A DNA stretch of 64,000 nucleotides from Escherichia coli (GTDB taxonomy: Bacteria; Pseudomonadota; Gammaproteobacteria; Enterobacterales; Enterobacteriaceae), in the NCBI RefSeq assembly GCF_013122565.1, contig NZ_CP053258.1, one strand, 5' to 3'. Shown piece by piece: positions 7,995 through 36,678 of the stretch; positions within the stretch are counted from its first letter, which is position 1, and each line of letters starts with the position of its first letter. Below the pieces are notes generated by a model. That model saw only the letters and a program-made list of their open reading frames with translations, did no database searches and was not told the DNA's origin. The translations under genes were made by a program, and so were the position numbers.

Positions 7995-8044
7995 TGGGAT
8001 TTCCTTGAGCTACTCAGTTTGTTGACAAAGTGTTCGTTGTTTTT

Positions 8045-8078
8045 GCCGGATGCGGCGTGAACGCCTTATCCGGCCTAC
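8045..8078. repeat. REP element (gccggatgcggcgtgaacgccttatccggcctac)
   Basis: Matches REP consensus; forms a BIME with the inverted copy at 8114-8142. Confidence 0.85.
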
Positions 8079-8113
8079 AAAATCGCGTAAATTCAATATA
8101 TTGCACCATCCTC

Positions 8114-8142
8114 GTAGGCCTGATAAGCGTAGCGCATCAGGC
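8114..8142. repeat. REP element, inverted copy (gtaggcctgataagcgtagcgcatcaggc)
   Basis: Reverse complement contains ATCAGGCCTAC; REP consensus. Confidence 0.85.
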
Positions 8143-8163
8143 AATTCTGTGTTTGTCATACGT

Positions 8164-22952: not shown

Positions 22953-23705
22953 ATGACCATTAAAAATGTAATTTGCGATATCGACGGCGTGCTGATGCAC
23001 GATAACGTCGCCGTACCGGGTGCAGCGGAATTTTTGCACGGGATTATGGATAAAGGCCTGCCGCTGGTGTTGCTGACCAACTATCCTTCGCAGACCGGGC
23101 AAGATCTGGCGAACCGCTTTGCCACTGCCGGTGTCGATGTACCTGACAGCGTGTTTTATACCTCTGCGATGGCGACCGCCGATTTCCTGCGTCGCCAGGA
23201 AGGCAAGAAAGCGTATGTGGTGGGCGAAGGCGCACTGATTCATGAACTGTACAAAGCCGGTTTCACTATTACCGATGTGAACCCTGATTTTGTGATTGTT
23301 GGCGAAACGCGTTCCTACAACTGGGACATGATGCATAAAGCGGCCTATTTCGTCGCTAATGGTGCACGCTTTATCGCCACCAACCCGGATACCCACGGGC
23401 GCGGTTTTTATCCGGCCTGTGGCGCGTTGTGTGCAGGGATTGAGAAAATCTCCGGGCGCAAACCGTTCTATGTTGGTAAGCCGAGTCCGTGGATTATCCG
23501 CGCGGCATTAAACAAAATGCAGGCACATTCGGAAGAAACGGTGATTGTCGGCGATAACCTGCGTACCGATATTCTGGCCGGCTTCCAGGCAGGTCTGGAG
23601 ACGATTCTGGTGCTTTCTGGTGTTTCGTCGCTCGACGATATCGACAGTATGCCTTTCCGCCCCAGCTGGATTTACCCGTCGGTCGCTGAAATCGACGTTA
23701 TCTGA
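22953..23705 (+). CDS. nagD: UMP phosphatase NagD/UmpH (HAD superfamily)
   Basis: 250 aa; HAD motif DIDGV at the N-terminus. Confidence 0.93.
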   Translation: MTIKNVICDIDGVLMHDNVAVPGAAEFLHGIMDKGLPLVLLTNYPSQTGQDLANRFATAGVDVPDSVFYTSAMATADFLRRQEGKKAYVVGEGALIHELYKAGFTITDVNPDFVIVGETRSYNWDMMHKAAYFVANGARFIATNPDTHGRGFYPACGALCAGIEKISGRKPFYVGKPSPWIIRAALNKMQAHSEETVIVGDNLRTDILAGFQAGLETILVLSGVSSLDDIDSMPFRPSWIYPSVAEIDVI

Positions 23706-23709
23706 ATAG

Positions 23710-23731
23710 CAACCACGTCTGCGGACGTGGT
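23710..23731 (+). terminator. Hairpin immediately 3' of nagD (possible terminator; no U-run)
   Basis: Stem aaccacgtc / gacgtggtt with loop tgcg. Confidence 0.4.
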
Positions 23732-23755
23732 TGATACTGATGACAAATGCCAAAC

Positions 23756-23785
23756 TGCCTGATGCGCTACGCTTATCAGGCCTAC
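23756..23785. repeat. REP element (gcctgatgcgctacgcttatcaggcctac)
   Basis: REP consensus ending ATCAGGCCTAC. Confidence 0.85.
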
Positions 23786-23820
23786 GCAGCTCCTGCAATA
23801 TATTGAATTTTCATGCTTTT

Positions 23821-23854
23821 GTAGGCCGGATAAGGCGTTCACGCCGCATCCGGC
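23821..23854. repeat. REP element, inverted (gtaggccggataaggcgttcacgccgcatccggc)
   Basis: REP consensus; forms a BIME with 23756-23785. Confidence 0.85.
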
Positions 23855-24101
23855 ATGAACAAATCGCACTTTGTCAGTAATTTGGCCCCCGTAAAATATA
23901 ACCATTCAATAAAACCCGCTAAAAATTATCGATTCATCAATAAATACATCCTTACACCAGACCTTTTTTCACCAATCGACAATCACCATTACGTTTTTTA
24001 TTTTTTCACCGCCAAATCGCTTGCGCACAGTGCTGCTTTGCGGCATTTTTTTAAACAAGCAAACACAACAAGCAACAAATACCAGGTTAACGGAGAAGGT
24101 T

Positions 24102-26144: not shown

Positions 26145-26221
26145 GGCTACGTAGCTCAGTTGGTTAGAGCACATCACTCATAATGATGGGGTCACAGGTT
26201 CGAATCCCGTCGTAGCCACCA
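26145..26221 (+). tRNA. metT: tRNA-Met (CAU), elongator
   Basis: 77-nt cloverleaf sequence ending CCA; anticodon loop ctCATaa. Confidence 0.95.
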
Positions 26222-26230
26222 TCTTTTTTT

Positions 26231-26315
26231 GCGGGAGTGGCGAAATTGGTAGACGCACCAGATTTAGGTTCTGGCGCCGCAAGGTGTGCGAGTTCAAGTC
26301 TCGCCTCCCGCACCA
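26231..26315 (+). tRNA. leuW: tRNA-Leu (UAG)
   Basis: 85-nt type II tRNA with long variable arm; anticodon loop ttTAGgt. Confidence 0.95.
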
Positions 26316-26338
26316 TTCACCAGAAAGCGTTGTACGGA

Positions 26339-26413
26339 TGGGGTATCGCCAAGCGGTAAGGCACCGGTTTTTGATACCGGCATTCCCTGGTTCGAATCCA
26401 GGTACCCCAGCCA
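26339..26413 (+). tRNA. glnU: tRNA-Gln (UUG)
   Basis: 75 nt; anticodon loop ttTTGat. Confidence 0.95.
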
Positions 26414-26447
26414 TCTTCTTCGAGTAAGCGGTTCACCGCCCGGTTAT

Positions 26448-26522
26448 TGGGGTATCGCCAAGCGGTAAGGCACCGGTTTTTGATACCGGCATTCCCTGGT
26501 TCGAATCCAGGTACCCCAGCCA
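26448..26522 (+). tRNA. glnW: tRNA-Gln (UUG)
   Basis: Identical copy of the 26339-26413 tRNA. Confidence 0.95.
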
Positions 26523-26537
26523 TCGAAGAAACAATCT

Positions 26538-26614
26538 GGCTACGTAGCTCAGTTGGTTAGAGCACATCACTCATAATGATGGGGTCACAGGTTCGAATCC
26601 CGTCGTAGCCACCA
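26538..26614 (+). tRNA. metU: tRNA-Met (CAU), elongator
   Basis: Identical copy of the 26145-26221 tRNA. Confidence 0.95.
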
Positions 26615-26662
26615 AATTCTGAATGTGTCGAATACGTTCGGCAAATTCAAAAACCAATTTGT

Positions 26663-26737
26663 TGGGGTATCGCCAAGCGGTAAGGCACCGGATTCTGATT
26701 CCGGCATTCCGAGGTTCGAATCCTCGTACCCCAGCCA
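26663..26737 (+). tRNA. glnV: tRNA-Gln (CUG)
   Basis: 75 nt; anticodon loop ttCTGat. Confidence 0.95.
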
Positions 26738-26774
26738 ATTTATTCAAGACGCTTACCTTGTAAGTGCACCCAGT

Positions 26775-26849
26775 TGGGGTATCGCCAAGCGGTAAGGCAC
26801 CGGATTCTGATTCCGGCATTCCGAGGTTCGAATCCTCGTACCCCAGCCA
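26775..26849 (+). tRNA. glnX: tRNA-Gln (CUG)
   Basis: Identical copy of the 26663-26737 tRNA. Confidence 0.95.
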
Positions 26850-26888: not shown

Positions 26889-26936
26889 GCGTATATTCAA
26901 TGTCGAATGCGATGTTGACTCGTCTTATCCTTCAAA

Positions 26937-28191
<1,255 letters not shown>

Positions 28192-28192
28192 C

Positions 28193-28252
<60 letters not shown>

Positions 28253-28281
28253 GTTGGCATGCATCCAGCAATGTTGTGAGG

Positions 28282-35611: not shown

Positions 35612-36520
35612 ATGCAATTACGTAAACCTGCCACAGCAATCCTGGCCCTGGCGCTTTCCGCAGGACTGGCACAGGCAGATGACGCCGCCCCGGTAGCGGG
35701 CAGTACGCTGGACAAAATCGCCAAAAACGGCGTGATTGTCGTCGGTCACCGTGAATCTTCAGTACCTTTCTCTTATTACGACAATCAGCAAAAAGTGGTG
35801 GGTTACTCGCAGGATTACTCCAACGCCATTGTTGAAGCAGTGAAAAAGAAACTCAACAAACCGGACTTGCAGGTAAAACTGATTCCGATTACCTCACAAA
35901 ACCGTATTCCGCTGCTGCAAAACGGCACTTTTGATTTTGAATGTGGTTCTACCACCAACAACGTCGAACGCCAAAAACAGGCGGCTTTCTCTGACACTAT
36001 TTTCGTGGTCGGTACGCGCCTGTTGACCAAAAAGGGTGGTGATATCAAAGATTTTGCCGATCTGAAAGGCAAAGCCGTAGTCGTTACTTCCGGCACTACC
36101 TCTGAAGTTTTGCTCAACAAACTGAATGAAGAGCAAAAAATGAATATGCGCATCATCAGCGCCAAAGATCACGGAGACTCTTTCCGTACCCTGGAAAGTG
36201 GTCGTGCTGTTGCCTTTATGATGGATGACGCTCTGCTGGCTGGTGAACGTGCGAAAGCGAAGAAACCAGACAACTGGGATATCGTCGGCAAGCCGCAGTC
36301 TCAGGAAGCCTACGGTTGTATGTTGCGTAAAGACGATCCGCAGTTCAAAAAGCTGATGGATGACACCATCGCGCAGGTGCAGACCTCCGGTGAAGCGGAA
36401 AAATGGTTTGATAAATGGTTCAAAAATCCAATTCCGCCGAAAAACCTGAACATGAATTTCGAACTGTCAGACGAAATGAAAGCACTGTTCAAAGAACCGA
36501 ATGACAAGGCACTGAACTAA
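35612..36520 (+). CDS. gltI: Glutamate/aspartate ABC transporter periplasmic binding protein
   Basis: 302 aa from ATG 35612 with AGGAG RBS; signal peptide; the track ORF is extended upstream to 35537. Confidence 0.93.
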   Translation: MQLRKPATAILALALSAGLAQADDAAPVAGSTLDKIAKNGVIVVGHRESSVPFSYYDNQQKVVGYSQDYSNAIVEAVKKKLNKPDLQVKLIPITSQNRIPLLQNGTFDFECGSTTNNVERQKQAAFSDTIFVVGTRLLTKKGGDIKDFADLKGKAVVVTSGTTSEVLLNKLNEEQKMNMRIISAKDHGDSFRTLESGRAVAFMMDDALLAGERAKAKKPDNWDIVGKPQSQEAYGCMLRKDDPQFKKLMDDTIAQVQTSGEAEKWFDKWFKNPIPPKNLNMNFELSDEMKALFKEPNDKALN

Positions 36521-36678
36521 TTACAAGAACCAGGGGCGGAAATTCCAGCCCTCTCAATTGTTACGTAGCACGGACAGACTATACGCCTGATGGTCGTTCC
36601 CCATCGGGCCTGAAAACCGCAATACGCTGGGTAACAATCTTCGAGGGTAGCAGTTAACGCTGCTACCCTCTTTTTTCT
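36516..36678 (+). ncRNA. sroC: SroC sRNA, 3'-derived from the gltI-gltJ intercistronic region
   Basis: 169-bp gltI-gltJ spacer ending in an intrinsic terminator (36643-36678); boundaries placed from my recollection of the K-12 annotation, so approximate. Confidence 0.65.
36643..36678 (+). terminator. Intra-operon rho-independent terminator between gltI and gltJ
   Basis: 11-bp perfect stem gagggtagcag / ctgctaccctc followed by ttttttct. Confidence 0.88.

Follow-up and report, generated by a model that had tools for sequence, protein, structure and literature searches.

An ordinary, empty REP pair between nagD and asnB of Escherichia coli and its relation to a resident guide variant of IS621

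Introduction

REPs have been described as targets of the insertion sequence IS621 (Choi et al. 2003, as cited in a passage of PMC1525189). The bridge RNA of IS621 carries a left target guide, which base-pairs to target positions 1-9 on the bottom strand, and a right target guide, which base-pairs to CTAC on the top strand (PMC11208160, PMC11208158). The REP tail ATCAGGCCTAC is a natural target through an rG:dT pair at position 4, and sites flanked by GCA are among the most used (PMC11208160). In experimental measurements, tolerance of a single mismatch between guide and target was low and that of two mismatches lower still, and off-target insertions with one or two mismatches were seen (PMC11208160).

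Natural targets have been grouped by guide (PMC11208160 Supplementary Data 2). The ATCCGACCTAC guide group holds 35 unique sites: 32 exact, two ATCCGGCCTAC, one ACCCGACCTAC, and none ATCAGGCCTAC (PMC11208160). Among the 132 sites of the ATCCGGCCTAC group that were considered here, about nine deviate, by one base each (PMC11208160).

This study concerns a REP pair downstream of nagD in an E. coli chromosome that also carries a copy of IS621. The best explanation, held with high confidence, is that the pair is an ordinary one, that its first REP (REP1) is a standard IS621 target, and that both REPs are empty in the setting of a nearby variant guide that does not match them and of rare occupancy in general.

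Data and scope

For the resident genome, the analysis covered a 64-kb stretch of DNA, referred to below as the window. Bridge RNA positions are numbered as in PMC11208158. Occupancy was surveyed in 5,426 complete E. coli genomes with junction queries that joined 150 nt of unique flank to 150 nt of IS. Shorter queries of 140 nt (75 nt of flank and 65 nt of the IS left end) were rejected because they over-counted, returning 1,175 genomes for REP1 (at least 80% coverage) and 47 for the second REP (REP2); the short-query REP2 matches that were inspected (loci L005-L007) proved to lie in paralogous REPs, those of yiiF-fdhE, msrQ-zinT, and waaH-tdh. Loci with the variant guide were gathered by an exact-protein look-up of the strain C9 recombinase, two residues from that of the window, together with genome matches. 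The exact recombinase sequence of the window was not on record in the sequence look-up.

The nagD-asnB REP pair

The gene order in the window is nagC, nagD (22953-23705), a 396-bp spacer, and asnB. Between the nagD stop codon (23705) and asnB lies an extragenic REP pair at 23756-23855, which is an ordinary E. coli REP pair (BIME) composed of two REPs in inverted orientation around a linker of 34 nt. REP1 occupies 23756-23786 on the + strand and ends in the tail ATCAGGCCTAC(G), with ATCAGGCCTAC itself at 23775-23785. The linker runs from 23787 to 23820. REP2 occupies 23855-23821 on the - strand, with its tail ATCCGGCCTAC at 23831-23821 and its CT core at 23824-23823. REP1 is a Y-type REP and REP2 a Z-type REP.

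Both units have the form of a REP, a ~35-nt imperfect palindrome with the head GCC(T/G)GATGCG and the tail ATC(A/C)GGCCTAC, and their arrangement is that of a BIME: inverted, separated by a short linker, extragenic, and repeated in the genome, each genome containing matching places by the tens. The tails of the two REPs make an inverted repeat of 14 nt, spaced 35 nt. Predicted hairpin folds reach -13.2 kcal/mol for REP1 (z -2.2) and -20.9 kcal/mol for REP2 (z -4.1). The 64-kb window holds four copies of the motif ATCNGNCCTAC where 0.23 would be expected, and none of 100 shuffles reached four copies; the two copies outside the nagD pair belong to a second REP pair at 8068-8124. REP1 positions 23757-23786 are exactly the query GCCTGATGCGCTACGCTTATCAGGCCTACG, one of three REP queries in PMC11208160, and REP2 differs by one mismatch from the published query TGCCGGATGCGGCGTAAACGCCTTATCCGGCCTAC. 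The REP1 50-mer at 23759-23808 is exactly the published entry TBL_ATCGGGCCTAC_seq255 (PMC11208160 Supplementary Data 2). Within REP1, the 14-nt target of standard IS621, ATCAGGC-CT-ACGCA, lies at 23775-23788 (+), with the CT core at 23782-23783 and the crossover after 23783.

An earlier note on this DNA had assigned both REPs to the ATCNGNCCT/AC class (here and below, a slash marks the crossover) and had described them as empty. The tails ATCAGGCCTAC and ATCCGGCCTAC bear out the first statement. The second also holds: the 99 bp were read and compared with E. coli K-12 MG1655, no IS sequence was found inside the pair, and the letters are the same as those of the K-12 allele.

The linker contains a 13-mer resembling the IHF consensus, ATTCAATATATTG (23796-23808, - strand), which agrees with WATCAANNNNTTR at 12 of 13 positions. 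A scan of the whole window for this consensus gave 63 matches where 53 are expected, which is not significant alone. The same 13-mer recurs unchanged at 8091-8103 in the second REP pair. The BIME-1, or RIP (RIB), element of E. coli consists of a Y REP, an L linker with an IHF site, and a Z1 REP. From its sequence, the nagD pair is likely a BIME-1/RIP, with the linker as a putative IHF site.

The second pair (window 8040-8150) has the same design and is likewise empty, with the same REP cores as the nagD pair. Its Z-type REP lies at 8068-8078 (+, ATCCGGCCTAC) and its Y-type REP at 8124-8111 (-, ATCAGGCCTACGAG). Among Rfam families, ES036 matches 23778-23820 (-) over its full length with 41.1 bits, above the gathering score of 37.6. 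ES036 is the CssrF sRNA family, and the second pair at 8068-8124 stays below its threshold; a literature search under the Rfam name ES036 returned unrelated papers only. A weak naRNA4 match also covers REP2. Elsewhere in the window, Rfam identifies the sroC sRNA at 36516-36678 (+, 168 bits), which is ordinary E. coli content.

The nagD REP pair is polymorphic. Among the 5,426 complete genomes it occurs in no fewer than 2,314, and strain ET201 and others are without it. When window positions 23707-23755 are compared with positions 1040-1110 of the ET201 locus, the nagD-asnB spacer of ET201 is seen to be ~155 bp shorter and to lack the pair. In ET201 a T-run comes after the post-nagD hairpin GCAACCACGTC...GACGTGGTT, which gives an arrangement resembling a terminator. 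In the window and K-12 this hairpin leads into GATACTGATG, with the REP pair next.

The resident IS621 element

Downstream of the tRNA cluster metT-leuW-glnU-glnW-metU-glnV-glnX (26145-26849) an insertion of 1,279 bp interrupts a REP, and ubiF follows on the - strand. The insertion, at 26971-28249 (+), runs from TGTATTATCC... to ...AACAGTATCT, its boundaries being set by the empty site of K-12. The occupied REP has its left half, GTCGGATGCGACGCTGCCGCGTCTTATCCGACCT, at 26936-26970 (+), where it terminates in the left target and the CT core, and the right half of the split target, ACAGTTGGCATGCA, lies at 28250-28263 (+). The empty K-12 allele at this glnX-ubiF site reads ...CTTATCCGACCTACGGTTGG, or with the crossover marked ...CTTATCCGACCT/ACGGTTGG, and the target is ATCCGACCTAC. 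When 26946-26970 and 28250-28263 are rejoined, the site is the published entry TBL_ATCCGACCTAC_seq4 (PMC11208160). The glnX-ubiF insertion is common to four genomes.

By sequence, the element has the recombinase domains (a DEDD-type, RuvC-like domain and a Tnp domain), the left-end bridge RNA, the CT at both junctions, and the empty site of an IS110 bridge-RNA element. Its recombinase gene (27162-28142, +) encodes 326 aa and scores 254 bits against NCBIfam NF033542, for which the cut-off is 140. The product is identical to the common IS621 protein WP_000399648.1 at 323 of 326 residues and keeps the catalytic residues D11, E60, D102, D105, and S241 (residue list from PMC11208158). The whole element is 98.2% identical to common IS621 and 99.8% identical to copies in ~8 genomes. 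It differs from the standard element at 23 positions over 1,279 bp, and six of these fall in the target-binding loop.

The bridge RNA coding region (26985-27161, +) is 177 nt long, as in standard IS621, and is predicted to fold into three stem-loops (-63.7 kcal/mol, z -3.6); no Rfam family matched over it. It contains the left target guide AUCCGACCU (27034-27042, +), a right-guide extension CGCG (27057-27060, +), and the right target guide GUAG (27061-27064, +). The six loop substitutions (G53C, G55A, and UUGC to CGCG at 73-76) are the only differences from the standard bridge RNA; both RNAs share identical stems, an identical 5' stem-loop, and an identical donor-binding loop. Through positions 53 and 55, the left target guide changes from the standard AUCGGGCCU to the resident AUCCGACCU. 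The 10-mer TATCCGACCT occurs exactly twice in the window: 26961-26970 is the copy at the left IS junction, and 27033-27042 is the copy within the element. The exact variant target loop is found in nine of the 5,426 genomes. The resident element is therefore a rare guide variant and not standard IS621, and we infer that this copy is active and follows the same pairing rules.

Just upstream of the occupied REP, window positions 26901-26935 hold a degenerate REP-like unit, GTCGAATGCGATGTTGACTCGTCTTATCCTTCAA, in direct tandem with it; K-12 has the same unit, and a weak Rfam naRNA4 match covers 26901-26969. The CGCG block at 73-76 accompanies the guide change and is also present in the C53/G55 variant (loci L007 and L022). 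A role for this block as a pairing extension into the right flank was considered and rejected, as it needs CGC after CTAC and the natural flanks are AAA, GGT, GGG, and GAA.

Guide-target pairing at the two REPs

Standard IS621 has the guide AUCGGGCCU and a right guide with extension reading UGCGUAG. Against it, REP1 (ATCAGGCCTACGCA) pairs at 14 of 14 positions, with one rG:dT at position 4. By part, pairing is 9/9 for the left guide (A50-U58), 4/4 for the right guide (G77-G80), and 3/3 for the GCA extension. Because all 14 positions pair and GCA-flanked sites are favoured (PMC11208160), REP1 is a cognate, not a near-cognate, site of standard IS621. REP2 pairs with the standard guide at eight of nine positions, the exception being an rG:dG mismatch at position 4. 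With the resident guide AUCCGACCU, position 4 of REP1 gives an rC:dT mismatch, and position 6 gives an rA:dC mismatch in both REP1 and REP2, so that REP1 has two mismatches and REP2 one; neither REP has the complementarity to the left target guide that defines a target site for the resident element.

The observations fit together as follows. IS621, a member of the IS110 family, lands at REP tails of the form ATCNGNCCT/AC under the direction of its bridge RNA. REP1 is the preferred natural site of the standard element, and REP2 is in the class used by IS621 relatives with C at guide position 53. In the resident sub-lineage the guide has changed to AUCCGACCU, a perfect match to its own site. Both REPs are very probably empty because the resident guide mismatches them and because any single REP is rarely hit.

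The earlier note had read the pair in another way, as two near-cognate sites whose use by the resident element would measure how stringent the match has to be. That both REPs are usable for this element, so that their occupancy reports stringency, is rather unlikely. The distances on which it rests are correct, since REP2 differs by one base and REP1 by two from the 10-mer TATCCGACCT of the target loop. Two of the 35 published sites of the variant guide are ATCCGGCCTAC, and the insertions at one or two mismatches seen in experiments also speak for it (PMC11208160). However, the mismatches at this pair would be rA:dC and rC:dT, and the tolerated pair is rG:dT; the measured intolerance of single and still more of double mismatches argues in the same direction (PMC11208160). 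The tail ATCAGGCCTAC was found at none of the nine variant-guide loci described below and at none of the 35 published sites. The framing as near-cognate test sites is only partly correct: the term does not fit REP1 in relation to standard IS621, for which it is fully cognate and by which it is occupied in some genomes. One empty locus also has no statistical power.

Natural targets of the variant guide

Copies with the variant guide were found at nine separate loci, of which two lie downstream of arsC and three are glnX-ubiF, manC-cpsG, and the aga operon; at these and at the four remaining loci, every left flank ends in ATCCGACCT. Together with the 32 exact sites among the 35 published ones, these loci confirm the assumption of the earlier note that the choice of site follows the match between loop and target.

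The two published ATCCGGCCTAC sites of this guide group may mean that the variant guide occasionally uses REP2-type sites. The published groups pool every IS110 element per guide, and some mismatched pairs could result from mutation after insertion. A degenerate copy in APEC O1, with the guide AUCCGGCCU, lies in a ATCCGACCT site with an rG:dT pair at position 6. This copy hints that guides containing G are more permissive than the A55 guide.

It is possible, though doubtful, that the IS621 sub-lineages carry nearly non-overlapping guides that divide the REP subfamilies among them, and that G-to-A changes in the guide narrow specificity by removing wobble. Under such a partition, AUCGGGCCU may direct insertion to ATCAGGCCTAC, AUCCGGCCU to both ATCCGGCCTAC and ATCCGACCTAC via rG:dT, and AUCCGACCU to ATCCGACCTAC only. 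If this were so, the nagD pair, whose Y-type and Z-type REPs are separated by 35 bp, would serve as a two-site reporter of the guide class active in each lineage.

Occupancy of the pair across E. coli

A genome survey at this BIME had been proposed in order to look for IS621-like insertions, and it was productive for one REP of the two. The nagD-REP1/IS621 junction is present in 42 of the 5,426 genomes, at the exact CT/AC position. In strains GZ04-0086 and HS the sequence was read directly: standard IS621 lies inside REP1, with the junction ATCAGGCCT/ACGCAG. The best full-length match to the nagD-REP1 junction query reaches 96.7% identity, which means that the variant guide is absent from all 42 genomes with an occupied REP1. 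These 42 genomes may represent perhaps a few ancestral events; their flank haplotypes differ. At REP2 of the nagD locus, an IS621 junction was found in 0 of the 5,426 genomes with the 150 + 150 nt query.

Full IS621 is present in ~1,635 genomes, and REP1 is occupied in 42 of ~2,356 genomes that bear the pair, which leaves it empty in ~98% of them. As even a matching guide leaves REP1 empty so often, the emptiness of the pair in the window is uninformative about stringency, and the proposal to use the empty REPs as its gauge has to be given up.

A further explanation is that an IS in the nagD-asnB spacer does harm or is physically blocked, for example by IHF or gyrase on the pair, and that guide match is irrelevant. 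The IHF-like motif in the linker and the complete lack of REP2 occupancy in the survey are in its favour. However, 42 genomes of diverse hosts tolerate IS621 in REP1, at a distance of 35 bp. Sites of the REP2 class are moreover occupied elsewhere, by standard-guide copies at yiiF-fdhE and msrQ-zinT and, at waaH-tdh, by a copy with the C53/G55 guide that matches its REP2-class site perfectly. This explanation is thus improbable. That the match between REP tail and loop is coincidental and the protein chooses the site by reading REP structure, in keeping with an older view in which the transposase sets the specificity of REP-targeting IS such as IS1397 (PMC1525189), is almost certainly wrong, since three natural guide variants each lie in the REP subclass matching their own guide, recombinases that are 99% identical have different targets, and reprogramming and guide-swap experiments show that RNA determines the target and have already refuted reading by protein only (PMC11208160).

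IS621 derivatives

Several IS621 derivatives came to light in the survey. In NZ_CP103672.1, downstream of znuB (locus L020, ~365-505), there is a 72-bp solo scar of the IS621 left end. It consists, in order, of the REP left target CGCCTTATCCGACCT, left-end nt 1 to ~61, TTATCCGACCT, and the right target ACGGTTCG. The missing part extends from the CT of the guide-coding DNA through the CT of the right end, exact at CT/AC. The scar occurs in at least 551 genomes at a single locus, where the allele of other strains is exactly 72 bp shorter. It looks like an excision in which guide-coding DNA (left target + CT + TG) acted as a false left junction, and it is probably one event at a single locus.

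Downstream of arsC (loci L008 and L016, ~1340-1400), a variant IS621 copy lacks left-end nt 1-72 but has an intact recombinase gene. The REP flank ...CTTATCCGACCT is fused directly to TGGGTTCTAACCTGCGCGGTAG, and fourteen more places are similar. This copy is a deletion between the arms of a 10-bp direct repeat, which the target half-site makes together with the guide-coding DNA. In both the znuB and the arsC derivatives, the breakpoints lie exactly at the left-target-guide DNA, a mimic of the true left junction. With one locus each, they are anecdotes and not a pattern.

A 1,264-bp relative of IS621, ~96% identical to the window copy, occurs in strains of phylogroup B2 such as UTI89, LF82, and APEC O1. 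The APEC O1 copy (NC_008563.1) that was examined has a frameshifted transposase, and at the right-guide region UAUGGUAG replaces the standard UUGCGUAG; it adjoins an IS1397 fragment. Strain 33F4 also has an IS621 relative with the guide AUCCGGCCU, whose left flank ...GTAATCCAGTAAAT is neither a REP nor CT-ended. An internal stop interrupts its transposase, and the copy is probably rearranged.

Significance and comparison with known systems

The use of REPs as IS621 targets, guide-target concordance, the tolerance of rG:dT at position 4, and the low tolerance of mismatches are already published, as is a survey of the kind that had been proposed (PMC11208160). The site in REP1 and the insertion site in the window both stand in the published target lists, and the significance of the present results lies mostly in correct annotation. 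Three points are corrected: the resident copy carries a natural variant of the guide and is not standard IS621, the standard element has a cognate site in REP1, and an empty REP says nothing about stringency. With six substitutions in the target loop and a recombinase that is 99% identical, the window is a textbook case of natural reprogramming of a bridge RNA.

The closest described systems resemble the locus to different degrees. Compared with natural IS621 targets, REP1 has the same 11-mer ATCAGGCCTAC and GCA flank that are naturally observed and experimentally favoured, but in the window it is unoccupied, and the tail of REP2, ATCCGGCCTAC, belongs to another guide group (PMC11208160). The resident element is like standard IS621 (1,279 bp, guide AUCGGGCCU) in its length, ends, 99% identical recombinase, and donor-binding loop; it differs by the six target-loop substitutions, which redirect it to ATCCGACCTAC REPs.

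With BIME-1/RIP, the nagD pair shares inverted REPs ~35 nt apart, the 13-mer ATTCAATATATTG in the linker, an extragenic position, and a layout that is repeated at 8068-8124. The IHF site of the nagD linker is a candidate, and its consensus match alone is not statistically distinctive.

IS1397, a BIME-specific element of the IS3 family, also targets E. coli REP pairs (PMC1525189). It was seen beside IS621 remnants at znuB (NZ_CP103672.1) and in APEC O1. It differs from IS621 in family and in its protein-determined specificity, and it is absent from the nagD REP pair.
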